This document shows, one piece after another, positions 93 to 48,009 of a DNA stretch of 64,000 bases. The stretch covers positions 8,933 through 72,932 of the forward strand of contig CAZTSL010000001.1 in assembly GCA_964616915.1 (NCBI GenBank), read 5' to 3'. The position numbers and the translations under genes were made by a program. This DNA comes from an uncultured bacterium (GTDB lineage Bacteria > Myxococcota_A > CAZTSL01). The notes under the pieces were generated by a model, which had not been told where the DNA came from, made no database searches, and saw nothing but the letters and a program-made list of their open reading frames with translations. Position 1 is the first letter of the stretch; each line of letters starts with the position of its first letter.

Positions 93-503
93 ATGTCCGA
101 CAAGATCGAAAAAACGGAAGCCGAATGGAAAGCCCTCCTCTCCGAGGAAGCCTTCGAGGTGACCCGGAAGAAGGGGACCGAACCCCCCTTCTCCGGCGAA
201 TACCATGCCACCAAGGAGAAGGGGATCTATCGCTGCGTCTGCTGCGGCAACGAACTCTTCACCTCGGAGACGAAGTACGACTCCGGCTCCGGATGGCCCA
301 GCTTCTGGCAACCGATCGCACTGGATCGGCTCCGCTTCGAAAGCGACACGAGCCATGGGATGACCCGCACCGAGGTCCTCTGCAAGCGGTGCGATGCCCA
401 TCTCGGGCACGTCTTCGACGATGGCCCCCCCCCCACCGGCAAACGCTACTGCATCAACTCCGTGGCACTCCGGCTCGACCGCGTGGAAAAGGCCGGAGAA
501 TGA
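93..503 (+). CDS. msrB: Peptide-methionine (R)-S-oxide reductase MsrB
   Basis: 136 aa with the SelR/MsrB fold motifs: two CxxC pairs (CVCCG...[12 protein letters not shown]) and the catalytic RYCINS motif. A Shine-Dalgarno-like sequence lies upstream. Confidence 0.9.
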
Positions 504-739
504 ACTTCCTCCCCGGGAGTGGAAAAAAAATTCCCTTTTCTCCCTCCCTTTTTTCCCTGAGGATCGCAACCTCCTCTCCTCTCGATCTGCGCGAACACCC
601 ATCTCTCCAAAGAGACGTGGAAAGGGAGAAGAATTGGAGTGGGATTTGCAGAGACATCCCCCCGGGAGAAAGGCTCCGACCCCTTCCGGGAGCCGCCTGG
701 AAGGAGCCGGCCAACGATCGCACGCAAAGGGGATGGCAG

Positions 740-1336
740 ATGCGCCGAAAAGTGGGAGTTCTGATCGTGATCTTGCTCGTTGCGGGGAGTATGCTTCCCC
801 TCCTCCTTCGCCAGGCCGCTCGCACGTGGGAGGCACACCTCCTGGCCCAGCGGATCGATGCCGAACGAATCCAGATCCTCTCGATTCGTCTGAAGGTCGA
901 GGCCTACATTGCGCTCTACGAGGCGGTACCGACCCGGGCGCAACTGACGGATGCCTTCTTCCCGGACGGGTTTCCCGAGCGGTTCGGCTATCTCAAGGTG
1001 GAGGAGGCCCCGGCGCCGGAGACGGCCTCTCCGGTGAGCCGGGCGATGGGGTCGTTCGATGCGCTCTTCCTCCACACGATCGTGGCGCGTAACCCCGTGC
1101 GCGACCTCGCCCTCCCGATCGAGGATACCGGCGGCTCCTTCCCCCCCCGCTTTCAGATGTCGGTGGGGAAGGAGCAGGAGGCCGGGATCGCCTTCCTGAT
1201 CTACGGGAAGGATCGGATCGAAGATTCCTATCTCGTGGCCACCCGATACCTGGGTCCCGTTTTCCTCGAGGATCTCCCCGATCCGATCCGGGAGCGGCTC
1301 GAAGCACTGCGGGCACATGCAGGGGAGGGACGATGA
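740..1336 (+). CDS. Hypothetical membrane-anchored protein
   Basis: This is the in-frame ATG at 740 inside ORF 125..1336. The product starts MRRKVGVLIVILLVAGSMLPLLL, i.e. an N-terminal TM/signal anchor. The upstream part of the ORF overlaps msrB in another frame and is rejected. The stop overlaps the ilvA start (ATGA). Confidence 0.5.
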   Translation: MRRKVGVLIVILLVAGSMLPLLLRQAARTWEAHLLAQRIDAERIQILSIRLKVEAYIALYEAVPTRAQLTDAFFPDGFPERFGYLKVEEAPAPETASPVSRAMGSFDALFLHTIVARNPVRDLALPIEDTGGSFPPRFQMSVGKEQEAGIAFLIYGKDRIEDSYLVATRYLGPVFLEDLPDPIRERLEALRAHAGEGR

Positions 1337-2550
1337 AGGCACACCGTTCCCGCCTCGAGGCCGCGCGCGAGCGGATCGGCGACCGGATCAAACCCACCCC
1401 GATCGACCGTTCCGAGACCCTCTCCCGGCAACTCGGCGCCGACGTCCATCTCAAGATGGAACTCTTCCAGACGACCGGTTCCTTCAAACTGCGCGGTGCC
1501 TTCAATCGTCTCCTCCAGCTCTCCCCGGAGGCGGCCGCGGCCGGCGTGGTGACGACTTCGGCCGGAAACCATGCGCAGGCCCTGGCCAAGGCGGCCTCCG
1601 ATCTCGGGATGGCCGCTTACATCTTCATGCCGGAGACGACCCCCCTCGTCAAGATCGAAGCCACTCAGGGCTATGGCGCAGAGGTTCACCTCCACGGCAA
1701 GAGTTTCGAGGAGGCCTTCGAGGCGGCCGACCGTTTCGCCCGGGAACGGGGGAAGACCTACGTCCACGGCTTCGACGACTGGCAGATCGTCTATGGCGCG
1801 GGGAGCGTGGGTCTCGAAATCCTCGAGGCACTCCCCGACATCGATACCCTCCTCTGTCCGGTCGGAGGCGGGGGGCTCGTCTCCGGCGTCGCCCTGGCCG
1901 CAAAGAGCCACGATCCCTCGATCGAGATCGTGGGGGTCCAGTCGAGCCATGTGCCGGGAATGGCGGAATCGATCACCAGGGGAGAGCGGATCGAGGCGTT
2001 CTATCGCCCCACGATCGCCGAGGGGATCGCGATCAAACGCCCCGGCAAGATCAACTTCGAGATCTGCCGGAACCACGTCGATCGTTTCCTCCAGGTCGAT
2101 GACGACGCGATCGCGCAGGCGATCCTCTTTCTGATGGAGCGCTGCAAGGTCGTTGCCGAAGGTGCCGGCGCCGCCGCCCTGGCCCCCCTTCTGGTCGCCT
2201 CCAATCCCGCGCGATGGAAGGGGCGGAAGATCTGCGTCATCGTCAGCGGGGGGAACATCGACTTCCATACGATATCGAGCATCATCACCCGCGGGCTTTC
2301 CCGCTCCGGGCGCTTCCTCCAGTTCTCCGCCCATGTGCCCGACACGCCGGGCCATCTCAAGAAGCTCGTCGATGGGGTCTCCGCGGTCAAGGGGAACATC
2401 CTCGACATCACTCACGACCGCACCGCGCCCGATCTTCCGCTCGGCTACGTCAAGATCAACATCATCCTCGAGACGAGGAACAAGGCCCACGGCCAGCAGA
2501 TCGTCAGCGACCTCTCCCGTCTGGGATATCCGATCCGGGAGATCACCTGA
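1333..2550 (+). CDS. ilvA: Threonine ammonia-lyase (threonine dehydratase), PLP-dependent with C-terminal ACT-like regulatory domain
   Basis: 405 aa. It has the PLP-lysine motif (GSFKLRGA) and the glycine-rich loop (VGGGGL) of the Trp-synthase-beta-superfamily fold, plus a C-terminal regulatory domain (FLQFSAHVPDTPGHL...). Confidence 0.85.
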   Translation: MKAHRSRLEAARERIGDRIKPTPIDRSETLSRQLGADVHLKMELFQTTGSFKLRGAFNRLLQLSPEAAAAGVVTTSAGNHAQALAKAASDLGMAAYIFMPETTPLVKIEATQGYGAEVHLHGKSFEEAFEAADRFARERGKTYVHGFDDWQIVYGAGSVGLEILEALPDIDTLLCPVGGGGLVSGVALAAKSHDPSIEIVGVQSSHVPGMAESITRGERIEAFYRPTIAEGIAIKRPGKINFEICRNHVDRFLQVDDDAIAQAILFLMERCKVVAEGAGAAALAPLLVASNPARWKGRKICVIVSGGNIDFHTISSIITRGLSRSGRFLQFSAHVPDTPGHLKKLVDGVSAVKGNILDITHDRTAPDLPLGYVKINIILETRNKAHGQQIVSDLSRLGYPIREIT

Positions 2551-3685
2551 CGCCGAATTCCTCGAAGATCCGATCGACGATTCGCTCCGCGGCCTTTCCA
2601 TCCCAGAGGGGGGGGCGCTCGCCCCGCTTCCATTTGCCGGCAAGCACGCGGTCGGCCGCATCGACGATCCGTTCGGGATCGGTGCCCACGATCTCGTTCG
2701 TGCCGAGGGTGACGGTGACGGGGCGCTCGGTGTTCTCCCGGAGCGTGATGCATGGCACCCCGAGGATGGTCGCCTCCTCCTGGAGGCCCCCCGAATCGGT
2801 GAGGACCATCTTCGCGTCCCGTTGCAATCGAAGCATCTCGTGATAATCGAGGGGAGGGGTCGTCCAGATCCCTTTGGTGGGCGCGTTCGCCGAGAGATCG
2901 TCGGGGAGGGGGGGGAACTTTTCCTGGAGCCCGAAGCGTTCCACCTGCTTTCGCGTCCGGGGATGGATCGGAAAGACGATCGGAATCCGGGTGGCGATCT
3001 CTTCGAGTGCCCCGAGGATCCGCAGGAAGGTCTCCCGGTCGTCCACGTTGCTCGGCCGGTGGAGCGTCAGCGCGGCGTACGCCCCGAGCCCCTCGAAGCG
3101 GGTGATCCGATCCACCTTGGGAAGCTGCTCGAGGAGCGTATCGATCATGACGTTGCCCACGAAGAAGATCCGCTCCCGCGGGATCCCTTCCCGGGCCAGA
3201 TTCTCGTTGGCCTCCGGGTCGGTCGTGAAGAGGTAGTCGCAGAGGATGTCCGTGACCATCCGGTTGATCTCTTCGGGCATCCGCATGTCCCGGCTCCGAA
3301 GCCCCGCCTCCACGTGGGCACAGGGGATCCAGAGCTTGCGGGCCGTCACCGTGCAGGCGAGCGTGGAGTTCACATCCCCCACGACGACCACGAGATCGGG
3401 TGATTCCTGCAAGAGGACCTTCTCGAAGGCGATCATCACCCGCCCCGTCTGCTCCGCGTGGCTCCCCGAACCGACCCCGAGATCGATGTCGGGGTAGGGG
3501 ATCCCGAGCTTGTCGAAGAAGGCCGCCGACATCGCCCGGTCGTAGTGTTGCCCCGTATGCACGAGGAGCGTCTCCACGGCCGCTCCTCCCTCCCGGCGCC
3601 GCCGTAGTTCCTCCATGATCGGGGCGATCTTCATGAAGTTCGGCCGGGCGCCGACGACATTGAGGAGTTTCATCATCCCTCCCAC
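2543..3685 (-). CDS. wecB: UDP-N-acetylglucosamine 2-epimerase (non-hydrolysing)
   Basis: 380 aa with the Epimerase_2 family signature (LLVHTGQHYD, GDVNSTLA, HVEAGLRS, TDSGGLQEEA). It is convergent with ilvA (8-nt overlap). The start may be an internal Met (MMKLLNV). Confidence 0.85.
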   Translation of the reverse strand: MGGMMKLLNVVGARPNFMKIAPIMEELRRRREGGAAVETLLVHTGQHYDRAMSAAFFDKLGIPYPDIDLGVGSGSHAEQTGRVMIAFEKVLLQESPDLVVVVGDVNSTLACTVTARKLWIPCAHVEAGLRSRDMRMPEEINRMVTDILCDYLFTTDPEANENLAREGIPRERIFFVGNVMIDTLLEQLPKVDRITRFEGLGAYAALTLHRPSNVDDRETFLRILGALEEIATRIPIVFPIHPRTRKQVERFGLQEKFPPLPDDLSANAPTKGIWTTPPLDYHEMLRLQRDAKMVLTDSGGLQEEATILGVPCITLRENTERPVTVTLGTNEIVGTDPERIVDAADRVLAGKWKRGERPPLWDGKAAERIVDRIFEEFGVR

Positions 3686-3806
3686 GAGACGCCGCTTCCG
3701 CCCGATCGGAAGTCAGGATCGTCTCGAATCGGGGCGCATTATAGAGGCCGCCCTGCTCCCCGTCAACCCCGCCGCGCCGGAGAGGAACGGAGGGGGAAAG
3801 GAAGAA

Positions 3807-3836
3807 TTGACATCCTGCCGTCCTTTCCTTTACGCT
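3807..3836 (+). promoter_or_regulatory. Putative sigma-70 promoter upstream of zorA
   Basis: TTGACA (3807-3812), a 17-18 nt spacer, then tacgct (TA...T) at about 3831-3836. It sits in the 178-bp wecB/zorA intergenic region, about 30 nt upstream of the zorA Shine-Dalgarno sequence. Confidence 0.35.
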
Positions 3837-3863
3837 GGAGAGAACGTTTCAGATGGAGGAGGT

Positions 3864-6239
3864 ATGATCGTCCTGGAAGTACTCAAGTGGCTGGTCGAAC
3901 CGGGGCCGGGGGAAGGGCTCACGAGGAACTTCATCCTGGCCATCGCCCTCTATCTCCTCCTCTCGAGCCTCTGGTTCTTCTGGAAGACCGATTCCCTTCG
4001 CCAGCGCGTCGAGCGGCTCCTTCGGAACGCGGAGGGAGAGGAAGGGGCAAGGGGGAAGGGTGACCTCGATCGGGAATACACACCGCCAGAGATCGACGAG
4101 TTCCTCGACAGATTCGCTACGGCCTTCGAGACGGCAGGCAACCCTCTCACTCCCCTGTGGCGGGAATACACCGCAACCTTCCTTCGAGAAGCGCGGAAAA
4201 CCACGCACGATGCCCGAAACTACTTCGATGTGACGCGTCTTCTCAGCGTCTCCATGGACCTGCGCTACTGGTTCGCGCTCCCCGGCCTCTTCGTGGGGGT
4301 CGGCGTCCTGGGGACCTTCGTCGGTCTGACCTGGGGGCTCTCCGACTTCCAAGTCGGCAACGACGTCATGATCCGGGAGAGCATCGGCAATCTTCTGCGT
4401 GGGATGAAGACCGCCTTCGGGACCTCGATTGCCGGCATGCTCTCCTCGATCCTCTTCTCCCTCCTCGAAAAGACGATGGTCCGGAGGGTCGAAAGGAGGA
4501 GCCAGGCCCTCGTCGAGCGCTTGAACGCAACCTTCCTCCTCACCGAGGAGGCCGCTGCGGCCTGGCAGGAGGAACGCCTCGCGGACCGGATCGATACGAT
4601 CCTCTCCCGCCACCTCTCCGTGACCGCCCGAACGAAGGGTGGAGAGGAGATCGAGCTTCCGATCGGCAGGATCCTCCGGAAACTCCTCGACGAGGCGGAA
4701 GAGGTGCGAGCCGCGATCAAGAGCTTCTCCACCGATCTTGCCGAGGGGATCATGCTCTCTACCGAGACGATCCATGCACTGGGAGATCGGCTCCGGGATG
4801 CCGTCGGAGAAGCTTTTGGCGAATCGTTCGGTCCCCTCTTCGAAGAGATGAAGCGGATCCTCGCAAAGATCGAAGAAACCGGCATGCAGAGCAACGCCCA
4901 CCTCGTCGAACGGCTCGAAAGGGAACTCTCGAACATCCTCCAGGAGATCGGGAAGGGGGTCGAGGAGATCTTCTCGACGAGGATGGCCGAATCGCTCGAA
5001 AGGATCGCTCACATCGTCGAGACCTCCACCGGCCAGCTCGATCGCCTCCCGCAGCGGGTCGATGAGACGCTCCAGGAGATGACGGCCGAACGCAAACGGG
5101 CCCATGCGCTCTTCTCCGAGACGGTCCACTCGATGCAGACGGCCAACGAGCAGCAGATCGCCACCACCCGCTCGCTGCTCAAAGGCGTCTTCTCCGCCAC
5201 CCGCCAGGAACTCCAGCGACAGACGGAGACCTTCGCCGGGATGGCCAAGGGCTTCGAGACGACCGCGCAACAACGACTCCAGCGCCAGGAGGAGGCCCTC
5301 TCCGCTTTCCTCGCCCGCTTCACCGAAGAGGTCGAGGAGGCCCGTCGGGCGCAACAGCTCCTCTTCGAGGAGGGGACGAAACGGTTCCAGACAGGGATGC
5401 GTGAGAGCTTCCAGAACTTCGAGGAGGGGATCGAGGAGATCCTCTCGGAGCGCATGACGGAACCCCTCGAAAAGATCGTCGCGGCCGCGGAGCGCTCGAC
5501 ACACTTGCTCGAACGGCTCCCCGCGCAACTGCAAGCGTCCCAGGAGACGATCGCGGCCCACATCGAGGGGCTGCGAGAGAGTGGCGAGATCTTCGAACGA
5601 CGGCTTCATGAAAGCGCCGAGCGCCTCGAAGGGACACTCACCCGCTTCACCGAACGGACGGAGGAGGAGATCGAACGGGCCGAAGGGATGCACGCGCGTC
5701 TCCTTGCCGGAATGCGCGCCGAGATCGAGGCCGTCCGCGCGACGCTCGCGCAGCACCGGGAACATCTCGAATCCGCTGGAAAGCTGACCGCAGGAATGAA
5801 CGACATCCTCTCCGGGTTGCACGAAGGCATCGGCACCCTCGACCGATGCGCAACGGCCTTCTCCTCCCATGCCACGACCGTCGAGGAGAGCGGCAACCGG
5901 CTCATCGACACGCTCGAGACCTTCCAGAAGGGAAGCGTCCAGGCCACAGAGCGGCTCCATGACGTTCTGGCGAAGATCGAGCAATCCCTCGAAGACACGA
6001 CGAAACTCCACGAACGCGTGACCCACGACTTCTTCACCATCCGGGAGGGACTCTCCGGCATCTTCGAGGAGATCGAGCAGGGGCTCGGCCGTTACCAGGA
6101 GACGACCCGGGATTCGCTCAACCAGTACCTCCGCGACTTTGCGGAGAACCTTTCCCAGGCGGCCGACAGACTCAAGAGCATGGTCGAAGAATTGAGCGAA
6201 CTGCTGGAAGATGTCGTCGAAATGAAGGAGCAGCGCTGA
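3864..6239 (+). CDS. zorA: Zorya anti-phage defence protein ZorA (MotA/ExbB/TolQ-like proton-channel subunit with long coiled-coil tail)
   Basis: The ATG at 3864 is preceded by GGAGGAGG. The N-terminal ~230 aa have three TM helices with MotA/TolQ/ExbB-type motifs (LPGLFVGVGVLGTFVGLTWGL; TAFGTSIAGMLSSILFSLLEK). They are followed by a ~560-aa tail rich in E/R/L/A heptad-like sequence. The stop overlaps the zorB start (ATGA). The reading frame 5' of 3864 overlaps wecB and is rejected. Confidence 0.8.
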   Translation: MIVLEVLKWLVEPGPGEGLTRNFILAIALYLLLSSLWFFWKTDSLRQRVERLLRNAEGEEGARGKGDLDREYTPPEIDEFLDRFATAFETAGNPLTPLWREYTATFLREARKTTHDARNYFDVTRLLSVSMDLRYWFALPGLFVGVGVLGTFVGLTWGLSDFQVGNDVMIRESIGNLLRGMKTAFGTSIAGMLSSILFSLLEKTMVRRVERRSQALVERLNATFLLTEEAAAAWQEERLADRIDTILSRHLSVTARTKGGEEIELPIGRILRKLLDEAEEVRAAIKSFSTDLAEGIMLSTETIHALGDRLRDAVGEAFGESFGPLFEEMKRILAKIEETGMQSNAHLVERLERELSNILQEIGKGVEEIFSTRMAESLERIAHIVETSTGQLDRLPQRVDETLQEMTAERKRAHALFSETVHSMQTANEQQIATTRSLLKGVFSATRQELQRQTETFAGMAKGFETTAQQRLQRQEEALSAFLARFTEEVEEARRAQQLLFEEGTKRFQTGMRESFQNFEEGIEEILSERMTEPLEKIVAAAERSTHLLERLPAQLQASQETIAAHIEGLRESGEIFERRLHESAERLEGTLTRFTERTEEEIERAEGMHARLLAGMRAEIEAVRATLAQHREHLESAGKLTAGMNDILSGLHEGIGTLDRCATAFSSHATTVEESGNRLIDTLETFQKGSVQATERLHDVLAKIEQSLEDTTKLHERVTHDFFTIREGLSGIFEEIEQGLGRYQETTRDSLNQYLRDFAENLSQAADRLKSMVEELSELLEDVVEMKEQR

Positions 6240-7075
6240 TGCGTCCACCGTTCCTTCGGGCCGTACCGACGGAGGAGAACCCCTTCGCGCTTTCGGTCGG
6301 GGATCTCATGGCCGCGCTCCTCCTCATCTTCATCCTCCTCCTCTCGAGCACGCTGCTGCGCCTCGAAAAGGAGTTCCAGCGGAAACGGGAGGAGACCGAG
6401 GCGGTGAAGCGGGCCGCGGAGCAGATCCAGGCGATCGCACAGACCTACAAGCGGCTCAAGGAGGATCTCTACGAGGATCTCTACCGCGAGTTCGCCAAGG
6501 ATCTCGAGCGGTGGGACGCGGTGATCGACCAGAAGACGCTCTCTGTGCGCTTCCGGGAGCCGGAGGTCCTCTTCGGGGTCGGGGACGCGCGCCTCAAACC
6601 GAGGTTCAAGGAGATCCTTCGTGATTTCTTTCCCCGTTACATCGGGATCCTCCTCCAGGAGGCGTACCGCGACAATATCGAGGAGATCCGGATCGAGGGG
6701 CATACCTCGAGCGAGTGGAACCGCCATGTCTCCTCCGATCTCGCCTACATCTACAACATGCGCCTCTCCCAGGATCGAACCCGCAGCGTCCTCTCCTTCT
6801 GCCTCGACCTCCTCTCCGGCGCGCGACGGGAATGGGCGAGAAGCAAGATCACGGCCAACGGCCTCTCCTTCAGCAAACGGATCCTCCGGGATGGCGTGGA
6901 GGACAAGAAGGCCTCCCGCCGGGTCGAGTTCCGGGTGCGCACCGACGCGGAACGGCAAATCGGCGAGATCCTGGGGATCGGTTTCCCCTCGGGAAAGACC
7001 CACGGCATCCCCCCTGGCCGCGGGGGGGGAGAGGGCCAGCGCGGGAATGCCGAAACGAGGAGAACGCAACCTTGA
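6239..7075 (+). CDS. zorB: Zorya protein ZorB (MotB-like TM anchor plus OmpA-like peptidoglycan-binding domain)
   Basis: 278 aa. It has an N-terminal TM helice (LMAALLLIFILLLSSTLL) and a conserved Asp in the plug region (SVGDLMA). The OmpA-like core carries IRIEGHTSSEW ... NMRLSQDRTRSVLSF (GHTD..G / N..LS..RA..V signature). It is translationally coupled to zorA. Confidence 0.8.
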   Translation: MRPPFLRAVPTEENPFALSVGDLMAALLLIFILLLSSTLLRLEKEFQRKREETEAVKRAAEQIQAIAQTYKRLKEDLYEDLYREFAKDLERWDAVIDQKTLSVRFREPEVLFGVGDARLKPRFKEILRDFFPRYIGILLQEAYRDNIEEIRIEGHTSSEWNRHVSSDLAYIYNMRLSQDRTRSVLSFCLDLLSGARREWARSKITANGLSFSKRILRDGVEDKKASRRVEFRVRTDAERQIGEILGIGFPSGKTHGIPPGRGGGEGQRGNAETRRTQP

Positions 7076-8529
7076 AGCCGGGCAAAGAACGTGATCGGGT
7101 CGAGGCGGCGAAACGATCGCTCTCCTTCTCCTTCTCGGCGGCATCCTTCCCCCTTGCCGCCCGGGGGATGATCGAGAAGGAGACCGAACGGGTGCTCGCC
7201 GAGCAGAAGCGAAGACTCGTGCGAATCAGCGGTGATGCCCGGGATCTCGGTCGCCCCGACGCCTCCCGGATGGCGGAGACCTGCCGGCGTTTCTTCCTCC
7301 ATGCTCCCCTGGGGGAGGCGGCGATCTTTCGGGCGTTCGATTCCCGGCGTCAGGTGAGGCGGTTGGCCTGGGCGCTCCCCTACCGGCTCGGCGAGAAACC
7401 TTCGATCGCCGAGTCCCCCCATCTTGCGCTCGCCCTCTCCCTGATCGAACGCCACTGGCGGAATCGCCTGATCGCTCCGCTCCGCTTTGCCCTTCTGCGC
7501 TACTGGCGCTCCCTCCCCCGGGAGAACGGAGCGCGGCTGCGCGCCCTCCTGCACGCCAGGGGGAGGAGGAAGCTGGGGGAACGGATCGTCTTCTTCACCG
7601 CCGAGGCGGGCCCTGAGCTGGCGGCCCGTTTCCTCCTCGAGAAGGAGGTTCCCCTCGATCGGGGGATGGAATACCTCGACATCTCCGATTCCCTGCGGGA
7701 CAGTGAGTACTTCCAGCACTTCCTCTTCGCCTATACGGAGAGGGCGATGAAGGGAAAGAACCCCCTGCGGCACGCAGGCGAGATCCTCGACTTCCTCGAA
7801 GGGGTGAAGAAGAGAGAAGTCGTCCGTCGCGGCATTGCGCCCCTCGTCGTGGGGTGTGAAGCGCTTCCCCCCCTTGCCCCCCTGAAAGGGCGGATCGAAC
7901 GCCTCTTCCGCAGCGAGATCGGCGACCCGATCGATCCGGTCGCCTGCCGCCCCTGGCCGGACGCCACGCCGGCGGAGCGCAAGAGGTGGGAGGAGGCCTG
8001 CCGCATCGTCAAGGGGTGGATCACCCAGAACTTCATCGAGCGCTTCTTCGACAAGATCGTGGTCGATGCGGATCGAAAGGCCTTCTGGCTGCGCTACATC
8101 GATGCCATCGAGCGCTTCAAGCTCTACGTGAACGAGGGAGAACGGTATCATCTCCAACACGATCCCACCCTTGCTCCTTACTTCGAGTCCCGCGTCGGCA
8201 GGCTCGCGGGGAGGCAGCAGAACGCGATCCTGATCCAGATCGATGACTACCTCTTCGTCGAGTTCGCCAAGACAGGGGACGCCTGTTACGTCTATTTCAT
8301 CCCGAACGGCAACGCTCCTTCCCTGGAGAAGGAAACATACTCGATCCATGCCCTCAAATCCCGCAGACTCATGGACCAGGGCAACGCTTTCCTCGATCCG
8401 GCATGCTGGGGGATCAACGGCCTGGAAGGGAAGGTGAATCATCATTCTGGATGGCAATGGCGGTTCGATCGGTGGTTCCGGGAATACCTCGGGATCGAGC
8501 CCCGGCAGAGGGGAAAGGCGAGACGCTGA
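7072..8529 (+). CDS. zorC: Candidate Zorya protein ZorC (third gene of the operon; start uncertain: TTG 7072 or ATG 7168)
   Basis: A single long ORF in operon position 3, coupled to the zorB stop (TTGA overlap at 7072-7075) with an alternative ATG at 7168. It is an arginine-rich 453-485-aa protein with no motif I recognise directly. The assignment is by synteny with type I Zorya, where ZorC carries an EH-signature domain. Confidence 0.5.
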   Translation: MKPGKERDRVEAAKRSLSFSFSAASFPLAARGMIEKETERVLAEQKRRLVRISGDARDLGRPDASRMAETCRRFFLHAPLGEAAIFRAFDSRRQVRRLAWALPYRLGEKPSIAESPHLALALSLIERHWRNRLIAPLRFALLRYWRSLPRENGARLRALLHARGRRKLGERIVFFTAEAGPELAARFLLEKEVPLDRGMEYLDISDSLRDSEYFQHFLFAYTERAMKGKNPLRHAGEILDFLEGVKKREVVRRGIAPLVVGCEALPPLAPLKGRIERLFRSEIGDPIDPVACRPWPDATPAERKRWEEACRIVKGWITQNFIERFFDKIVVDADRKAFWLRYIDAIERFKLYVNEGERYHLQHDPTLAPYFESRVGRLAGRQQNAILIQIDDYLFVEFAKTGDACYVYFIPNGNAPSLEKETYSIHALKSRRLMDQGNAFLDPACWGINGLEGKVNHHSGWQWRFDRWFREYLGIEPRQRGKARR

Positions 8530-8552
8530 GGGGGAGAGAGGAGTCCATCGGA

Positions 8553-11500
8553 ATGATCGCGTTCAAGGTCGCCGAAGATGGCGTGCTCTTCCGCCGATCG
8601 GCGGAGGGAACCGGGGGAGAAGGGGAAGCCGCCCATCTCCTCGAGGAATGGCTCGACAATGGCCTGGCCGTTTCGGTGCCGCAAGGGGTGAAGGTCCCTC
8701 ACGAGGTCGTTGCCGATCTCGACAGGGAGGAGGGGCAGATCGTGGGACTCCCCGATCCCTACCCCTTCGAGATCGCACTCTTCCCGAACGAGGCGATCAT
8801 CCCCGATCCGTCGTTCCGCTACCGGCTCGAATTCCTCCCCCACCCTCTGGCCCCACCCTTTGCCGTTGCGCGGGTGGGGTGTTTCATCACGATCGACGGG
8901 GCGGTGACCTATCGCCTCACGCCTCCTCAGTTCCGGCTCTGCGAGGCGGTGGCGGCCTTCGATGCCCTCCCCGAGGGGGCGCGCACGATCGAGTGCCACT
9001 GGTCGAGATTCGCCGAGATCCGCGCGCTGGCCAGGGCGGGGGAGGTGTACCTCGATCCGTACCTGGCCAACGAAGAGGTCGTGCTTCCGGAACGGATCCG
9101 CCTCAAGATCGAACGGCAGGGGGAAGGGACGATCACCCTCCACCCGGAGATCGAGGGGATCGACCAGCCTCAGTTCGAAAAGCGTTTCCGGTCTCCGCGG
9201 ATCCGGAAGGTCTATTCGCTCGAGTCTCCGGAGGGGAAGCGCCGGCGGATCGTCTTCTCCCCCGCGCAGCAGCGTGAACTCGAAAAGATCAAGAAGTACC
9301 GGCGGCTCGAAGGGGAGATGCGCGAGCGTCTCCTCGAAGCGCCGCAGGAGATCTTCGACCCCGATCTGATCGATCTCGACGACTTCAGCGAACGCGTCGT
9401 TCGTATCGGCCTCTACAAGCCCCGGGTCTACCCCTTCGTCTCCCCCTACAAGTCGCAGTGGATTCCGGGATCGATCGTGGAAACCTCCCCCACGCAACGG
9501 CTCAGGATCCCCTTCCCCACCCGGGAGGCGGTCGAACGCTTCGCAGCGGCCTACGAGGAAGCGAGAGCCAAGGGGGCGCGCGCCATGCGCTGGGAGGGAG
9601 AGGAGATTCCGCTCCAGGCCGCCGGATCGGCGCTTCGCCATGCCCGGCGGCAATGGGAGCAACCCGATCGCCCCATAAACCAGGGGGAGGGGGGGGAACC
9701 GGTCCTCATCATCAAGGAAAACATCGAGACCCTCGAACATGCGGAGGCGCAGCCCCGCGCTCCCCTCGCGCCCGATCGTTTCGAGCATCGCTACCAGGCC
9801 ATTCCCGGCCTGAAGGGGGGGGTGGAGATCCTTCCTCACCAGCGGGAGGGGATCGCCTGGCTCCAGAGCCTCCACCTCGACGGATACCGTGGGGCGCTCC
9901 TTGCCGACGACATGGGCCTTGGCAAGACCTTGCAGATCCTCGCCTTCCTCTCCTGGCACCGGGCGAAGCGAAACGTGGAAGGGAAACCCTACCTCCTCGT
10001 GGCCCCCGTCTCCCTCCTCGAAAGCTGGGAGGAAGAGTACGGGAAGTTCTGGGCGCAACGGATGCCGGTCGTGCGGGAGTACGGGGGCGCACACAACCTG
10101 GACGACGTGGGGAAGGGGGACGCTGGGATCGTGCTCACCACCTACGAAACGCTGCGCCGGCGGCAATTCGAGTTCTGCCGCATCGCATGGAGCGTGGTCG
10201 TTCTCGACGAGGCCCAGAAGATCAAGACCCCGGGAACCCTCGTCACGAACGCGGTGAAAGCGCTCAAGGCCGATTTCAAGATCGCAGCCACCGGCACCCC
10301 GGTGGAGAACACCCTCGTCGATCTCTGGTCGATCTGCGACTTCATCGTGCCGGGTCTCCTGGGGAGTGCCCGATCGTTTGCGCAGAGCTACCAGACCCCC
10401 CTCAAGAAGGAGGAGACCGATCTCGAGCAGCTCGGGGAACGGCTCCGCGCGCAGATCGGATGCCACATCAAGCGGCGTCTCAAGGAGGACGTACTCGAAG
10501 CCCTGCCCCCAAAGCGGATCGTCTGCCGCAAGCGGCGCATGCCCCCCGAACAGGAGGCCCGCTACCTGGCCGCCCTGCGGGGGGGGGTGGAGGAAAGGGC
10601 GCCGGGACGCAACGCAATGCTGAGATGCCTCTTCGAGATCCGCGATATCAGCGATCATCCCGCTCTCCCCGACCGGGAGATCGATGCCATTCCGATCGAT
10701 CGCCTCCTGGCCACCTCCGCGAAGCTCGCAGAGACCCACCGGTGCCTCGAGGAGATTCGAGAGCGAGGGGAAAAGGTGATCCTCTTCTCCGATCGGCGCA
10801 AGACGCAGCGTCTCCTGGCCCGGCTCCTGCGCGAGTGCTTCGGGGTCAACCCGAGCATCATCCACGGCCAGACCCCGGTGCATGCGACCCGCAGCAAGGA
10901 GAGCCGCCGGGAAGCGGTGGAGCGGTTCCAGGCGCAACCCGGCTTCCACGCGATCGTCATCTCTCCGCTGGCCGCGGGGGTGGGTCTCAACATCACCGCC
11001 GCGAACCATGTGATCCACTACACCCGTTCCTGGAATCCGGCCAGGGAGGAGCAGGCCACGGACCGGGTGTACCGGATCGGACAGAGACGCACGGTCTACG
11101 TGCATCTTCCCATGGCGGTCTCGGACGATTTCAAGAGCTTCGATCTCGTGATCCACGAATTGCTCGAACGGAAGCGCGCTCTTGCGCGTGCCTCCCTCTT
11201 CCCCACGGAGCAGGCGGAGATCTCTCCCCTGGAACTCTTCGAGCATCTCCATGAGCATCTTCCGGGCTCCTCCCACCCCCTTGCAGCCGAGTCTCCCCTT
11301 GGGATCGAGGATCTCGACACCTTGGAGCCCTTCTGCTTCGAGGCTGCCGTGGCGGCGCTCTGGGATGCGGCGGGGTATGCGGTGATCCTCACGCCGAGAC
11401 GGGGGGACCATGGCGCGGACGTCGTTGCGCGCAGAGGGGAGCGGGGATTCCTCCTCCAGGTGAAGTCGGGCCGCAGTTCCCTTGGCCCCCATTCCGTCAT

Positions 11501-11720
11501 CGGAGAGATCCTGCGGGCGAAGTCTTTCTACGGCGAACGTTTCGGGTGCGACTTTTCGCTCGGGATCGTCACGAACCGTCCCCTCACCCCCCAGGCGGAG
11601 GCGGAGAGTGCCATCAACGGCATCGAGATCTACGGCCGCGATTGGCTCGCCGAGCAGATCACCCGCCATCCCCTCACCCTCTCCCAGATCCACGCCTGGG
11701 AAGCACGCCGGGAGCAATGA
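8553..11720 (+). CDS. zorD: Zorya protein ZorD-like: SNF2-family helicase (SNF2_N + Helicase_C) fused to a C-terminal Mrr-like PD-(D/E)xK nuclease domain
   Basis: The ATG at 8553 lies 8 nt after GGAGAGAGGAG and 24 nt after the zorC stop. SNF2 motifs: LADDMGLGKTLQ (I), VVLDEAQKIK (II, DEAQ), AATGTPVEN (III). Helicase_C motifs: IISPLAAGVGLNITAANHVIHY, SWNPAREEQATDRVYRIGQ. The C-terminal ~130 aa carry GDHGADVV...GFLLQVKSG, matching the Mrr catalytic D-x(n)-(E/Q)xK core. Confidence 0.8.
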   Translation: MIAFKVAEDGVLFRRSAEGTGGEGEAAHLLEEWLDNGLAVSVPQGVKVPHEVVADLDREEGQIVGLPDPYPFEIALFPNEAIIPDPSFRYRLEFLPHPLAPPFAVARVGCFITIDGAVTYRLTPPQFRLCEAVAAFDALPEGARTIECHWSRFAEIRALARAGEVYLDPYLANEEVVLPERIRLKIERQGEGTITLHPEIEGIDQPQFEKRFRSPRIRKVYSLESPEGKRRRIVFSPAQQRELEKIKKYRRLEGEMRERLLEAPQEIFDPDLIDLDDFSERVVRIGLYKPRVYPFVSPYKSQWIPGSIVETSPTQRLRIPFPTREAVERFAAAYEEARAKGARAMRWEGEEIPLQAAGSALRHARRQWEQPDRPINQGEGGEPVLIIKENIETLEHAEAQPRAPLAPDRFEHRYQAIPGLKGGVEILPHQREGIAWLQSLHLDGYRGALLADDMGLGKTLQILAFLSWHRAKRNVEGKPYLLVAPVSLLESWEEEYGKFWAQRMPVVREYGGAHNLDDVGKGDAGIVLTTYETLRRRQFEFCRIAWSVVVLDEAQKIKTPGTLVTNAVKALKADFKIAATGTPVENTLVDLWSICDFIVPGLLGSARSFAQSYQTPLKKEETDLEQLGERLRAQIGCHIKRRLKEDVLEALPPKRIVCRKRRMPPEQEARYLAALRGGVEERAPGRNAMLRCLFEIRDISDHPALPDREIDAIPIDRLLATSAKLAETHRCLEEIRERGEKVILFSDRRKTQRLLARLLRECFGVNPSIIHGQTPVHATRSKESRREAVERFQAQPGFHAIVISPLAAGVGLNITAANHVIHYTRSWNPAREEQATDRVYRIGQRRTVYVHLPMAVSDDFKSFDLVIHELLERKRALARASLFPTEQAEISPLELFEHLHEHLPGSSHPLAAESPLGIEDLDTLEPFCFEAAVAALWDAAGYAVILTPRRGDHGADVVARRGERGFLLQVKSGRSSLGPHSVIGEILRAKSFYGERFGCDFSLGIVTNRPLTPQAEAESAINGIEIYGRDWLAEQITRHPLTLSQIHAWEARREQ

Positions 11721-11891: not shown

Positions 11892-13559
11892 TCAGAGGGC
11901 TTCCTTCCCCGAGGTGAGTGTGAACCAGCGATCGATGAGATCCCGATATTCGTCGCCGAGCTGGGAGGTATATCCGGTGAAGTTGACCGAGAGATCCGCC
12001 CGCGCATCCTCGGAGGAAACCGCCCCCTGAATGAGGAGAGGCAGGAGCGTCACGAGATGGGCGTCCCTTACATTCCCGACATTCCGGTCCAGAATCTCGG
12101 AGACCTTCTTCTCGACGACCTCCCGCTTCGCCTCCTTCGTCTCGGGATCCTTGTACTGGATCTCGAGCGTGAAGGTCGCCTCCGGGTCGAGGGGGGTCTG
12201 TGGATCACAGAGGGTGAACCCCTCGAAGAAGAACTGGGAGGTGTTGAACGAGAAGTTCGTCGTGGCGACCTCCGATTCGTTCGTCGAGGATTCCTCGGAG
12301 GCCGTGATCCGGCGGGTGAGCATCTCCGGGAAGTCGAGGCGGAAGCGCACGTCCCTGGCCGCAACGCTCAGCAGCGCGATGAAGCGGTCCTTGAAGGCAC
12401 GCTTCGCGTCGAAGGGGGTGATGACCGCGAAGTAGGCTCCCTTCCCCGCCTCGGTCAACTCGTCGAGGAACGCCTCCTGGAAGTCTGCGCCGAAACCGAT
12501 GCCGGAGAAGTAGATCCCCTCCCGCTCGTTGATCGAGGTCGCCTGCGCGATCACGCTGGGATTGACCTCACCCCGATTGGCGTAGGCATCGGTCAGGAGG
12601 ATGACGCGGTTCATCTTCGCCGGATCGTACTGGCGCCACGCGACTTCGTAGCCGAGTTCGATCCCCCGGTTCAGGTTCGTACTCCCGATCGTGTGGAGCG
12701 CCTCGATATACTGGAGATAGCGCTCCTCGCCGTCGGTGTAGGCGTATCCCTCGAAGACGACGTCGGCGTCGTCGGAGAACTCCACGAGATTGACGACGTC
12801 GCCCGGCTTGAGGCTGCCGTACATCACGGAGAGCCCGAACTTGGCCGCATCGAGGAGGGTCTTGATCTGGCTCTCCCCCGAATCGTAGAGGAGTTCCGTA
12901 TCCATCGAGCCGGAGACGTCCACGATCAGGGTGACGACGGCGTTGCGCCGTTCCTCCCGCGTGATCGTCGGCGCCGAGAGGTGAATCCCGAGATCGTAGA
13001 CCGTGCGTTTCGGATCGGTGGGGTCCTTGAGATCCCAGAGGCCGACGGAGACATCGAAGAGACCGATCTTCTCCGCGCCCTCCTGGGAGAAGTGTTCATA
13101 GTTGAGGAACTCCCAGGGTCGTGCCCACCCCTTCGAGGGCACCCGCCCCGACTGGAGGGCGGACTTCGTCAGTTCGACGCCGGCGGTGCTGGCCGAATCG
13201 TCGTAGGAGAAATAGAAGAACTTCGGTTCTTCCGAACAGACGAGTTCCGCGGAAGATTCTGCCGATGCCTCCTCTGTCTCCGATACGGAGAATTCTCCCG
13301 ACTCGGCTTCCGCACCCGTTTCCGACCCGGTTGCTGCGCCCGATTCCCCATCGTCGAAGACGGCGTCGGAGCCCTGTCCTTCCCCGTCTCCCGCCGGTGC
13401 GGCTGCGGGCTCGTTTCCGCCGCCGTTGCTCTGGATGCCTGCCTCCGTCTTGTTCGTATCTTCCCCCTCTCCGCCACAGGCCACGGCAACGAGGGGAAGG
13501 AGCAGGGCGATCCAGGAGATGATGTGGATGTGGGTCTTTCCCACCGCGCTTCGCTTCAT
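11892..13559 (-). CDS. Secreted VWA (von Willebrand factor A) domain lipoprotein
   Basis: Internal Met start MKRSAVGK... followed by a lipobox (LLPLVAVAC|GG). It has a long acidic G/E/S/A-rich linker and a VWA domain with the MIDAS motif (VTLIVDVSGSM ... VILLTDAYANRG). It is convergent with zorD. Confidence 0.7.
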   Translation of the reverse strand: MKRSAVGKTHIHIISWIALLLPLVAVACGGEGEDTNKTEAGIQSNGGGNEPAAAPAGDGEGQGSDAVFDDGESGAATGSETGAEAESGEFSVSETEEASAESSAELVCSEEPKFFYFSYDDSASTAGVELTKSALQSGRVPSKGWARPWEFLNYEHFSQEGAEKIGLFDVSVGLWDLKDPTDPKRTVYDLGIHLSAPTITREERRNAVVTLIVDVSGSMDTELLYDSGESQIKTLLDAAKFGLSVMYGSLKPGDVVNLVEFSDDADVVFEGYAYTDGEERYLQYIEALHTIGSTNLNRGIELGYEVAWRQYDPAKMNRVILLTDAYANRGEVNPSVIAQATSINEREGIYFSGIGFGADFQEAFLDELTEAGKGAYFAVITPFDAKRAFKDRFIALLSVAARDVRFRLDFPEMLTRRITASEESSTNESEVATTNFSFNTSQFFFEGFTLCDPQTPLDPEATFTLEIQYKDPETKEAKREVVEKKVSEILDRNVGNVRDAHLVTLLPLLIQGAVSSEDARADLSVNFTGYTSQLGDEYRDLIDRWFTLTSGKEAL

Positions 13560-13844
13560 CGTCTTCCTCCTTTGTCTCTTCCCGGATGGTGGCGATCGTG
13601 TTTCAAAGGTGAAGTGCAAAGTTTGGGCCATAGGGCATCCCCTTCCCGCCCCAGGGAGCAGGGATGCGCCATACCCGCCACGATGCATCGGTTGCCGGCG
13701 GGGAAATCAGAGGAGAATCCTCCTCCCCTGGGGGGCAGGGGAGGAGAGATTCGAGCATGGAATTCGGGACGGACGATCAGAAAATCGAGGGCGTCGTCTC
13801 ACTTTTTCGGAGGGTTCCCCTTTCTCGTTCTCTTCGTAACGCGC

Positions 13845-23399: not shown

Positions 23400-23472
23400 G
23401 GGCTCATAGCTCAGCGGGTAGAGCTCCCGGCTCATAACCGGAGGGTCCCTGGTTCGAACCCAGGTGAGCCCA
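23400..23472 (+). tRNA. tRNA-Met (anticodon CAT), elongator type (could alternatively be the lysidine-modified tRNA-Ile2)
   Basis: The 73-nt cloverleaf is GGGCTCA / TGAGCCC acceptor, GCTCAGCGGGTAGAGC D-arm, CTCATAA anticodon loop and GGTTCGAACCC T-arm. No CCA is encoded. Confidence 0.85.
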
Positions 23473-23684
23473 CATCGTTGTCCCGACGGTTCGACCGGGC
23501 GTGGATGGCTCGATCGCAGAGATCACGATATCCATGAAAGCAGCCGTATTCATAGGGGAGAGAGCCGATTCCCATGCATGGGATGCCAGGCCGAGAACGC
23601 ACCTGAGTCCAGGGGCGTTTTTTTGTTGGCTGACCTGGAAACGCTCATGATCCCTCGACCACCCGACGACACGGAGGAAACGTC

Positions 23685-24410: not shown

Positions 24411-24815
<405 letters not shown>

Positions 24816-25518: not shown

Positions 25519-27966
25519 CTATTTCCTGGACGGTTTCTTTTCGATCTGCGCGACGATTCCTGCTTCGAGCAGGTCGATGACGACTTCGTAGTGCTGCCCT
25601 GCCCGGGTGGTGAAGGGGATCTTCTTACGTTTGCCCGGATCGAGCGTGGAGACGAGGAGGAAGTCGTGGCGGCCGTGAGGGATCTCCTTCGCTACGATCG
25701 GCGTCGTTCCAACGAAGCGATCATCGACATAGACCTCGACGGCTTCATCCGATTTCACCCGCACGGAGAGCAAGGCGGGAAAACGCCTTCGAACGGTTCG
25801 ATAACGGTGCGCTTCGACCCGGATCCGCTCCGTTCGATGGATGCCCAGATCCCGCCTGCTGAAGGTGACGTCGTGCTCCCCCGCGGGCACCTTGAAGAAG
25901 GTCTTCGGGGAGGGGCGCCGATGGATCTTTCCATCGAGATGGACATCGACGGGAGGATCGATGTCGAAGGCGACGAAACCGTACGCCACTTCGAGACGGG
26001 CCAGGAGTTTCCGCACGAGCCCGGCTTCGATCGGCATTTCGGTCTTCCATTCCTCGAAGCCCTCCTTTCGCAGGACGATCTCATAGGTCTTTCCCCCCGG
26101 CAGTCGGACTTCCGCAGGGGTTTTCTGCTCCAGGGGCTGTCCATCGATGAAGATCCGGCACCCCTCCGGAATGGAGGAGAGGAGCACACCGCCCATCTCG
26201 CCGAGTTCCTTCGATCTTTCGAGTTGCACGGTGATGGCAGTCTCCTCCCCTGCCGAGAGGACGAACGATTTTTTCCAGGGCACGAAGCCCGTTTTGTGGA
26301 TCTCGATCTCGTGCGGGACGCATGCCTGGATCGAGGAGAGGCGAAGGGGGGTACGTGCAGGAACGGGATCTCCGAAGGCATTCGTCGATGTCTGGGTCTT
26401 GCCGTCGAAGCTCACCTCCGCGCCGGGGGGATCGGTGTAGATGTCGAGTTGCGCCATACGGGGGGAGAGTCGGAGATCCCGACGCCCTCCCTCCTTCCCT
26501 CCCCCTGGGAGGGAAAGGGTGGCGGTTTCGTAGCAGGGATGGACGAAGTGGAGTTCCGCCTCCTTTCGCGGTCCGATCCCCTCGATGACGGCGATTCCCG
26601 CTTCATCCGTGGTGGCGATCTGCTTGCCATCGAGGAGCACCGCGACGTCGGCCACACCGGTACGCACGACCCACGGTTCCGTTCCGGCCGGTCGCAAGAG
26701 ATGGTAGATCCCCACCCCTCCGGCGATCGCGCCGGCAAAGATGAGGGTGCCCAGGAGAAGGTTCCGCCCCTCTCCTGCGGTCCACCGCCCGAGCCTTCCG
26801 ACCGCACGCTTCAGCGTTCCGGCCCAGGCGAGCGGGAGCATCCGATCGGTCGCTTCCGCCCTCTTTGGCAGGGGGGGGGGGGGGGCCTCGGCCGGAGGGA
26901 GATCCGAACCGACGAGACGTTCCGACGACGCATTCCCCCCACCCGACGAGGCCGCCGATGGGGACGTGGCTGCCGCGGCCGCGGGCGCGCTCTCCTCCGC
27001 TGCCTGGCTCAAGAGCTTGATCGCTTCCTTCTCCGCGATCTTCTCCTCGAACATGTCGTGGAGGAACGTATCGAGATCGATCGTGGTCGGGCGCCGATGT
27101 CGTTCCTGCAGGTAGGCTTCGAGTTCGCGGCGAAAAACGCGGGCGGAAGGGAAACGCGCCGCAGGATCCTTGGCCAACGCACGGGCCACGATCGCCTCGA
27201 ATCGCTCGTCCACCTCGACCCCGAATTTCCGCATCGGTGGCACGGGCGCGCTCTTGATCGCCTCGAGGGTCAGATAGTCGCTACGGCGGTCGAAGGGACG
27301 CACGCCGGTGACCATCTCGTAGAGCACGACCCCGAGCGAGAAGATGTCGGAGCGTTTGTCGAGCGCGTTGCTCAAGACCTGCTCCGGGGACATGTAGGAA
27401 TATTTCCCCTTGAGCATTCCCCCCTTCGTCTTCTGGTCGTCGGCCCGTTTCGCAATCCCGAAATCGGTGATCTTGACCTCCCCATTGTAGGAGATCAGGA
27501 TGTTCTGGGGGGAGATGTCCCGGTGGATGATGTTGAGCGGTTCCCCGGAGAGGTCGTCCCGTTTCGTATGCGCATAATCGAGTCCCTTGCAGACGTCGAT
27601 TCCGATCTTCGCCGCGAAGAGATCGGGAAGACGCGCTTTGCGCCGGGCGAGTTCATCGATGACCGTGGCAAGGTTCTCCCCCTGCACGTACTCCATCTCG
27701 ATGAAGTAGGTCTCCTCGATGAGGCCGAAATCGTAGACCCGTACGATATTGGGGTGATTCAGCTGGGCGGCCAACTGCGCTTCGTTGAAGAACATCTCGG
27801 TAAAGCGTTGGCTCGAACCGAGATAGGGGAGGATGACCTTGATCGCCACCGGCATGCTGAAGCCGCGGGGGCCTCGTTTCTGGGCCAGATAGACCTCGCC
27901 CATTCCCCCCACGGCGATCCGTTTGAGCAGCACGTACTTGCCGAATGGCTTCCCCGGTTCCATCAA
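25519..27966 (-). CDS. Serine/threonine protein kinase with proline-rich linker, TM segment and C-terminal PEGA-domain repeats
   Basis: Hanks kinase motifs: GGMGEVY (G-loop), AIK, HRDISPQNILI, DFG, SPE. A TM helix (LLGTLIFAGAIAGGVGIYHLL) is followed by three or more PEGA-like repeats (PPGAEVSFDGK, PEGCRIFIDGQ, VDVHLDGK). Confidence 0.85.
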   Translation of the reverse strand: MMEPGKPFGKYVLLKRIAVGGMGEVYLAQKRGPRGFSMPVAIKVILPYLGSSQRFTEMFFNEAQLAAQLNHPNIVRVYDFGLIEETYFIEMEYVQGENLATVIDELARRKARLPDLFAAKIGIDVCKGLDYAHTKRDDLSGEPLNIIHRDISPQNILISYNGEVKITDFGIAKRADDQKTKGGMLKGKYSYMSPEQVLSNALDKRSDIFSLGVVLYEMVTGVRPFDRRSDYLTLEAIKSAPVPPMRKFGVEVDERFEAIVARALAKDPAARFPSARVFRRELEAYLQERHRRPTTIDLDTFLHDMFEEKIAEKEAIKLLSQAAEESAPAAAAATSPSAASSGGGNASSERLVGSDLPPAEAPPPPLPKRAEATDRMLPLAWAGTLKRAVGRLGRWTAGEGRNLLLGTLIFAGAIAGGVGIYHLLRPAGTEPWVVRTGVADVAVLLDGKQIATTDEAGIAVIEGIGPRKEAELHFVHPCYETATLSLPGGGKEGGRRDLRLSPRMAQLDIYTDPPGAEVSFDGKTQTSTNAFGDPVPARTPLRLSSIQACVPHEIEIHKTGFVPWKKSFVLSAGEETAITVQLERSKELGEMGGVLLSSIPEGCRIFIDGQPLEQKTPAEVRLPGGKTYEIVLRKEGFEEWKTEMPIEAGLVRKLLARLEVAYGFVAFDIDPPVDVHLDGKIHRRPSPKTFFKVPAGEHDVTFSRRDLGIHRTERIRVEAHRYRTVRRRFPALLSVRVKSDEAVEVYVDDRFVGTTPIVAKEIPHGRHDFLLVSTLDPGKRKKIPFTTRAGQHYEVVIDLLEAGIVAQIEKKPSRK

Positions 27967-28035
27967 ACGATCCCGGTCGAAGTGCGGGGATTCGAAGGGG
28001 AGATCCGACCCGCAAGTCCGGTGATGGTTGACGGC

Positions 28036-37287: not shown

Positions 37288-37361
<74 letters not shown>

Positions 37362-47969: not shown

Positions 47970-48009
47970 GGCACCTGTCTCCCCTCGAGCCGAATCGCCC
48001 GCTTCCTCG

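Follow-up and report, generated by a model that had tools for sequence, protein, structure and literature searches.

The structure and mechanism of Zorya anti-phage systems have already been published (PMC11946911, PMC11890865). Our reference for type I is the system of Escherichia coli NCTC9026 (EcZorI), whose genes follow the order zorABCD and whose proteins were solved as ZorAB (PDB 8qyd), ZorC (8r68) and ZorD (8qy7); Hu et al. identified residues whose mutation abolishes its defence (PMC11946911). Type II systems (zorABE) are represented by that of Sulfuricurvum kujiense (PDB 8vvi; PMC11890865), and the 5:2 motors MotAB, ExbBD and TolQR belong to the same membrane-motor superfamily as the ZorAB pair described below (PMC11946911). 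Here we describe four genes at positions 3864–11720 (+) of a 64,000-nucleotide (nt) stretch of contig CAZTSL010000001.1 from an uncultured bacterium, referred to below as the window. We conclude with high confidence from the analyses that follow that these genes form a type I Zorya (zorABCD) operon against phages that is complete and apparently functional. Judged by its sequence, it is a divergent and unannotated but canonical type I Zorya, and not a new kind of system.

Identity and organization of the zor operon

The four genes lie on the same strand in the canonical order, one copy each, as in EcZorI, and the top PADLOC match of each product is the corresponding Zor family. The identification draws on gene content and order, on domain architecture, on the conservation of residues essential in E. 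coli (equivalents are present in ZorA, ZorB, ZorC and ZorD) and on conservation of the operon in relatives, all established directly here. A preliminary description of this DNA had proposed a four-gene type I Zorya operon, and the proposal held against each of the refuting conditions named with it: all four proteins matched Zorya models and published Zorya structures best, with profile E-values far outside the range of chance. The first gene product matched the dedicated ZorA1 model PDLC00601 (5.6e-35) and the solved E. coli ZorA (8qyd; 2.9e-11, over transmembrane helices TM2 and TM3), so the MotA/ExbB homology expected of ZorA is not missing. For the second, the ZorB2 model PDLC00641 gave 263 bits and the ZorB1 model PDLC00609 206 bits over its full length, and the channel aspartate and the Y-N-x-x-L-x-x-x-R peptidoglycan-binding motif are kept. 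The third, named ZorC earlier from its position, scored 88 bits against the Pfam model EH_Signature (PF15611; cut-off 27.5; model positions 65–423 of 423), and also matched nine PADLOC ZorC1 models (best 1.5e-16) and the solved E. coli ZorC (8r68; 3.6e-10). The fourth aligned end to end with the PADLOC ZorD1 model PDLC00631 (1023 bits; protein 4–1046 on model 6–1070 of 1071) and matched the solved E. coli ZorD at 3e-121, N-terminal stretches included. A RapA-like housekeeping SNF2 protein was considered for this gene and rejected, as the NCBIfam RapA model PRK04914 reached only 30.6 bits against a cut-off of 576, through the helicase C-lobe alone (RapA 31 versus ZorD 491 bits).

Gene boundaries were obtained by stop-to-stop open reading frame (ORF) mapping and reading of the junction sequences (Table 1). 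The sequence has 63% GC, and the frames of all four genes show the signature of real genes, with GC contents of 0.71–0.80 at third and 0.44–0.49 at second codon positions; the long antisense ORFs show the mirrored pattern of shadow ORFs. The junction of zorA and zorB reads cgcTGATGcgt, with stop and start sharing 1 nt, and not the ATGA overlap reported earlier; the overlap of the zorB stop with the zorC start (TTGA) and the 23-nt gap between zorC and zorD had been read correctly. Together with the Shine–Dalgarno-like motifs, this overlapping or close spacing indicates co-translation. The TTG start of zorC at 7072 is supported because the next possible start codon is the ATG at 7169, from which translation would miss AK(S/R)LL.F.F, an N-terminal motif conserved in ZorC relatives. 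The zorA start lines up with the N-termini of ZorA relatives. Upstream of it, the sigma-70-like TTGACA-18-TACGCT element may be a weak promoter; it fails a consensus promoter scan. A terminator scan found nothing convincing 3' of zorD, and folding of the spacer between zorD and the downstream VWA gene gave a z-score of +1.46.

The arrangement recurs in relatives. Complete zorA-zorB-zorC-zorD operons were found at four ZorD relatives (P0002, P0012, P0017 and P0036), from a Limnocylindrales metagenome-assembled genome (MAG), a Poribacteria MAG and two further metagenome assemblies, with ZorA of 566–636, ZorB of 235–251, ZorC of 465–480 and ZorD of 1059–1082 amino acids (aa). At a further relative, P0023 of a Desulfobacterales MAG (locus L039), zorA (599 aa), zorB (256 aa) and zorD (1078 aa) are present and no zorC was called. 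Since the zorABCD unit is conserved across phyla, chance adjacency of the four genes is excluded. The nearest full-length ZorD relatives are 43–51% identical, and ZorC relatives were drawn from operons located through ZorD. Word-indexed searches with ZorA and ZorC returned almost only partial self-matches from two MAGs: one ('Deltaproteobacteria bacterium', D6795 locus tags) carries identical fragments of ZorD and ZorC, both incomplete and both labelled hypothetical proteins, and the other (D6812) a ZorA fragment 92% identical, with its frame intact across 552 residues. An exact look-up of the window ZorD sequence found no record, and a genome-collection scan with it gave only generic SNF2 helicases (residues ~428–890, 24–40% identity) and no close relative.

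Compared with the operons that share the ZorD model PDLC00631 (L035 of the Limnocylindrales MAG, L037, and L040 of the Poribacteria MAG), the window operon has the same end-to-end ZorD, Mrr domain included, a ZorC equally without the C-terminal domain found in E. coli, the same type of ZorB peptidoglycan-binding domain, a conserved ZorA tail tip and tight gene coupling. It differs in identity (43–51% for ZorD, ~30% for ZorA and ZorC), in its longer ZorA, which carries a tail duplication, and in a longer C-terminal extension of ZorB.

Some related loci are disrupted or differently equipped. Among the closest ZorD relatives (those of the Limnocylindrales MAG and of contigs related to it), L035 (7815–8603) and L036 (7363–8151) each have zorB as two ORFs, and the zorA–zorC region of L038 (748–4079) is shattered into small reading frames. 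The cause is either operon decay or frameshift error. Locus L039 (4823–11237) encodes a ZorA with an HTH_8 match, then ZorB, a 450-nt gap without a called zorC, and ZorD, and a HEPN/nucleotidyltransferase pair lies directly upstream. Unlike the window copy, same-clade Zorya operons stand beside a type I restriction-modification system at L037 (1–5901) and beside a type III CRISPR-Cas (Cas10/RAMP) module with an integrase at L040 (14254–19192).

Several observations weigh against reading the operon as a complete, functional type I Zorya. Although the NCBIfam Zorya models rank first for all four proteins, each score lies under the curated cut-off (ZorA_2, 94.2 versus 100; ZorB2, 185.5 versus 400; ZorC, 58.8 versus 490; ZorD, 490.8 versus 1500), and the general Pfam models are also sub-threshold (MotA_ExbB, 16.2 versus 22.9; OmpA, 26.2 versus 27.2). 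The E. coli ZorA Ca2+-site residues E86 and E89 could not be mapped onto the window ZorA. In ZorC, E. coli H443 falls in a gapped loop in both pairwise and multiple alignments, with no unambiguous match to H457, and the protein stops 24 residues after W461, so that the C-terminal globular domain (~479–560 in E. coli) is missing. Finally, the operon lies outside a defence island, with no mobile-element neighbours and no compositional anomaly. The NCBIfam entries are narrow models centred on enterobacterial-type sequences; their sub-threshold scores explain why the genes lack annotation and are no argument against membership.

The weak Pfam scores, and the abundance of SNF2 helicases, many generic ones of which appeared in the genome scan, are what a MotAB-, ExbBD- or TolQR-type pair lying by chance beside an unrelated SNF2–Mrr restriction-like helicase would also produce. 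Such a pair would not explain the strong matches to dedicated ZorA, ZorB, ZorC and ZorD models, the NCBIfam scores of 28 bits for the MotB family and 21 bits for MotS against 186 for ZorB2, or the Zorya-specific set of a 565-aa tail, an EH-signature gene and a full-length ZorD match. With the four-gene order recurring in distant taxa, this explanation is effectively refuted, and we assign it next to no probability.

Table 1. Positions of the zor genes, of features within them and of other genes in the window. Residues are numbered in the protein named; SD, Shine–Dalgarno-like motif.
Feature	Position (nt)	Strand	Details and basis
zorA	3864–6239	+	791 aa; ORF map and junction sequence
zorB	6239–7075	+	278 aa; ORF map and junction sequence
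zorC	7072–8529	+	485 aa, TTG start; ORF map and junction sequence
zorD	8553–11720	+	1055 aa; ORF map and junction sequence
Possible weak sigma-70-like zorA promoter, TTGACA-18 nt-TACGCT	3807–3836	+	read from sequence
zorA SD, GGAGGAGG	3855–3862	+	directly 5' of zorA start
zorB SD, AAGGAG	6225–6230	+	read from sequence
zorC SD, GAGGAG	7057–7062	+	9 nt 5' of TTG start
zorD SD, GAGGAG	8538–8543	+	read from sequence
ZorA membrane module, MotA/ExbB/TolQ-like			TM1 ~21–42, TM2 ~135–160, TM3 ~183–205; hydropathy/alignment
ZorA helical cytoplasmic tail			residues ~227–791, ~565 aa; proline-poor
ZorA tail repeat, copy 1	4908–5342	+	residues 349–493
ZorA tail repeat, copy 2	5379–5777	+	residues 506–638
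ZorB TM helix			residues ~14–44; single, N-terminal; hydropathy
ZorB channel Asp22	6302–6304	+	codon; alignment
ZorB helical linker, then OmpA-like peptidoglycan-binding domain			Y172, N173, L176, R180; alignment
ZorB Gly/Arg/Pro-rich C-terminal extension	6974–7072	+	residues 246–278, 33 aa
ZorC E397	8260–8262	+	codon; invariant in subfamily alignment
ZorC H457	8440–8442	+	codon; invariant in subfamily alignment; four residues before invariant Trp
ZorD-specific N-terminal domain	ZorD N-terminus	+	PDLC00631, 8qy7 N-terminal stretches
ZorD Snf2 ATPase	9837–11081	+	GLGKT 455–459, DEAQ 552–555
ZorD Mrr-type PD-(D/E)xK nuclease domain	11313–11654	+	residues 921–1034; D956, Q969, K971
IlvA	1333–2550		upstream of the zor operon; TIGR01127, 452 bits
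WecB	2543–3685	-	divergent from zorA; intergenic 178 nt
VWA-domain protein	11892–13688	-	convergent with zorD
Hanks-type Ser/Thr kinase with PEGA domains	25519–28035	-	838 aa
Hanks-type Ser/Thr kinase	48010–49326	-	438 aa
Kinase-AAA16-TPR-GAF-sigma54 activator-HTH protein	52698–57920	-	1740 aa
RNase P RNA, bacterial class A	24433–24809	+	290 bits; away from Zorya operon
tRNA-Met (CAT)	23400–23473	+	away from Zorya operon
tRNA-Met (CAT)	37288–37362	+	away from Zorya operon

The predicted ZorA–ZorB motor

Like its E. coli counterpart, the window ZorA combines three transmembrane helices with a long tail and keeps the threonine/serine ion filter: T147 and S184 of E. coli correspond to T151 and S188, and P136 to P140, in the 8qyd alignment. 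Hydropathy detected TM1 and TM2 only, and TM3 was placed by alignment with TM3 of E. coli ZorA. The same alignment shows that the motor-locking residues P163 and E164 are not kept (D167 and V168 here). Identity to EcZorI is low, and ZorA aligns confidently only at TM2–TM3. The protein carries the type I N-terminal elaboration, ~105 residues before TM2, the region shared with type II ZorA, and type I ZorA models align from its residue 10. Searches returned 3502 ZorA relatives at E<=1e-3.

The cytoplasmic tail contains 5 prolines in 565 residues and is longer than the 507-residue, ~70 nm tail of E. coli ZorA (PMC11946911). Part of it is duplicated. Self-alignment of residues 349–493 with 506–638 scored 120, against 54 +/- 9 for shuffled sequences, and at the DNA level a 69-nt core (4939–5007) is 77% identical to 5410–5478, an offset of 471 nt, or 157 codons. 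In a multiple alignment, a segment corresponding approximately to copy 2 is missing from ZorA relatives of 566–670 aa, and the duplication is present in P0121, the 92%-identical ZorA fragment of the second MAG. Because this sibling shares it, the duplication is real and in frame, not an assembly artefact. The 157 additional codons account for a window ZorA 155–225 residues longer than the ZorA of the nearest operons; in the cytoplasmic domain next to the membrane, the window protein has a further insertion of ~30 residues. With the E. coli tail as the scale, its tail would be roughly 78 nm long, within ~75–80 nm, as compared to ~47–57 nm in relatives. An exceptional overall length was considered and rejected: among 149 representative relatives, with a median of 613 aa, 20 have at least 750 aa and 9 at least 791 aa. 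The best-conserved stretch of the tail is its tip (~640–791), which fits the effector-recruitment role known for this part in E. coli.

In ZorB, the channel aspartate D26 of E. coli (SYADLM) corresponds to D22 (SVGDLM), and the peptidoglycan-binding residues Y151, N152, L155 and R159 to Y172, N173, L176 and R180. The match to the E. coli structure is nonetheless modest (8qyd_F, 2.7e-7). The periplasmic domain is much nearer the type II ZorB of S. kujiense (8vvi, 5e-43) than the type I ZorB of E. coli or Shewanella, and both PADLOC ZorB2 and NCBIfam ZorB2 are the top models for the protein. A type II-like ZorB is already known within type I, as the type I model PDLC00609 also matches over its full length. 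The rest of the locus differs from type II (zorABE): ZorC and ZorD follow zorB, neither PADLOC nor Pfam gave a match to the HNH protein ZorE, and ZorA has 791 aa against 378 in S. kujiense, its tail being far longer and its N-terminus elaborated as in type I. The 33-residue C-terminal extension of ZorB runs past the ends of the ZorB models; in relatives the extension has 6–25 residues.

With MotAB, ExbBD and TolQR, the window pair shares the channel aspartate and OmpA-like peptidoglycan anchor of the B subunit and the serine/threonine ring of the A subunit. It differs from these motors in lacking a plug or linker architecture and neighbouring flagellar, Ton or Tol partners, in the general MotA_ExbB, OmpA and MotB models scoring under their cut-offs, and in its 565-aa coiled-coil tail and nuclease/helicase effectors, which are Zorya-specific.

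ZorC, ZorD and the proposed defence mechanism

ZorC is a basic protein (isoelectric point 9.9), predicted to be soluble by hydropathy, in which the EH-signature core of E. coli ZorC is kept: D332, R335 and W339 retain their numbering, E400 corresponds to E397 and W458 to W461. H457, which is invariant in the subfamily and lies four residues before the invariant tryptophan, is a plausible equivalent of E. coli H443. A single-sequence AlphaFold model of the protein had a mean predicted local distance difference test (pLDDT) score of 48 and fell below 50 across the EH region. The window ZorC has 485 aa, compared with 560 in E. coli, where the C-terminal globular domain is required for DNA binding and defence (PMC11946911). 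Since ZorC here lacks that domain, the effector step may differ from that of E. coli. The domain is, however, a trait of the E. coli subfamily and not of all type I ZorC proteins, as the PADLOC ZorC1 models span 426–575 positions; it is also missing in the close relatives (465–480 aa).

ZorD, likewise predicted to be soluble, scored above the Pfam cut-offs for SNF2-rel_dom (177 bits), Helicase_C (64 bits) and Mrr_cat (39 bits; cut-off 21). As in EcZorI, an N-terminal domain precedes an Snf2 ATPase with a conserved Walker A motif (GLGKT) and DEAQ box, and the ribose-contacting glutamate E651 of E. coli corresponds to E494. The N-terminal part is shorter than in E. coli, and an Mrr nuclease domain is added: the E. 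coli protein ends right behind its Snf2 domain, the alignment stopping at residue 1068 of 1080. The Mrr core, D956...Q969-x-K971, is conserved in five ZorD sequences, and almost all of the 120 best ZorD matches combine SNF2, Helicase_C and Mrr_cat (PF04471). Some members of the ZorD family are already known to carry an Mrr-like domain (PADLOC model description; PMC11890865). In the window protein this domain is most likely the DNA-cutting module, with the Snf2 motor providing translocation. A different effector fusion occurs in P0024, a protein of 1725 aa that is 49% identical to the window ZorD over 83% of its length and carries a fused protein kinase and NERD domain in place of Mrr.

The mechanism that we propose follows the E. 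coli system by homology in all its steps (PMC11946911, PMC11890865). ZorA and ZorB would assemble in the inner membrane into a proton-driven 5:2 rotary motor (ZorA5:ZorB2), in which the ZorB dimer grips the peptidoglycan through its OmpA-like domains and protons are carried by Asp22 of ZorB and gated by Thr151 and Ser188 of ZorA. Perturbation of the envelope, as a phage injects its DNA, is expected to switch the motor on, and rotation would pass down the long pentameric ZorA tail (~565 residues). At the site of injection, the conserved tail tip would then recruit soluble ZorC, acting as a basic EH-signature DNA-binding protein, and ZorD, acting as an Snf2 ATPase, and phage DNA entering there would be degraded.

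The same proteins might also follow a different effector logic, in which the Mrr domain of ZorD is the sole nuclease and ZorC is chiefly an adaptor that links ZorD to the tip of the ZorA tail. This would fit the added Mrr_cat domain with its D...QxK core, absent from an E. coli ZorD that ends after Snf2, and the early end of ZorC, where the E. coli protein continues into a domain required for DNA binding; the relatives share both the short ZorC and the PF04471 domain. It fits less well with the strongly basic character of ZorC and with its conserved EH-signature core, which contacts DNA in E. coli too. Type I Zorya, moreover, was described from its discovery onwards as including Mrr-bearing ZorD proteins (PADLOC description; PMC11890865), and so the Mrr-bearing lineage is a sub-variant and no separate system. 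We consider this effector logic possible and lean against it. A further-reaching version, a mechanistically distinct type I sub-variant in which the ZorD Mrr domain destroys the DNA, ZorC is an adaptor only and the ZorA tail is lengthened by ~40–65% relative to the nearest relatives, appears unlikely to us.

Genomic setting and significance

As the preliminary description stated, the type I Zorya operon is flanked by ilvA and wecB upstream and by a VWA gene downstream; further on come housekeeping genes, among them those for an EamA transporter and an acyl-AMP ligase. A reading of the locus as horizontally transferred or as part of a defence island found no support: the GC content does not shift, an integrase is lacking, and no tRNA gene is adjacent, the nearest being tRNA-Met at 23400. 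A PADLOC scan of ~30 further window ORFs detected no other multi-gene defence system.

This isolated position among housekeeping genes, with no defence or mobile neighbours and a GC content equal to that of the flanks, together with the split, shattered or zorC-less state of related loci, could point to a relic: an operon intact in sequence and inactive in defence, or co-opted for other envelope sensing. Against a relic stand the four full-length ORFs, in which every catalytic or essential residue checked is intact, the frame kept over 552 residues in the 92%-identical ZorA of the second MAG, and the preserved signals of translational coupling. We regard a relic as very unlikely.

Other elements of the window were also noted. 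The intergenic region between wecB and zorA contains a strong, near-consensus wecB promoter (3738–3766, -; TTGACG-17-TATAAT, 11/12 sigma-70 matches). All three Hanks-type kinases match PADLOC PD-T4-6 single-gene models (up to 270 bits) through generic kinase domains, and the 1740-aa protein, again through generic domains, additionally matches RtcR/PspF models. In a kinase-rich deltaproteobacterium, the most likely role of the three kinases is signalling, and PADLOC could report them as single-gene defence. Beside the 438-aa kinase, a 352-aa ORF (47043–48101, -) resembles the Shedu SduA N-terminus (26 bits, residues 46–109), too weakly and partially for an assignment. A 403-aa ORF at 125–1336 (+), with no Pfam or NCBIfam match and atypical third-position GC content, is probably not a gene.

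The guess that the operon is not annotated is borne out by the 'hypothetical protein' labels of the identical MAG fragments and by the NCBIfam scores, all four below cut-off. It is nevertheless a routine PADLOC or DefenseFinder call, detectable by any defence-system annotator, and it opens no new question; published work already covers the system, how it is built and how it works. The analysis supplies names for four genes recorded as hypothetical in an uncultured deltaproteobacterial MAG, and it shows that the NCBI Zorya models miss divergent environmental members. The operon brings together a tail-duplicated ZorA, a ZorB resembling that of type II, a ZorC without the C-terminal domain and an Mrr-bearing ZorD, a combination that could help to show which features of the E. 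coli model are universal and which are specific to E. coli. Should the mechanistically distinct sub-variant prove true, the duplicated ZorA tail would serve as a natural experiment in which the reach of signalling could be related to tail length.

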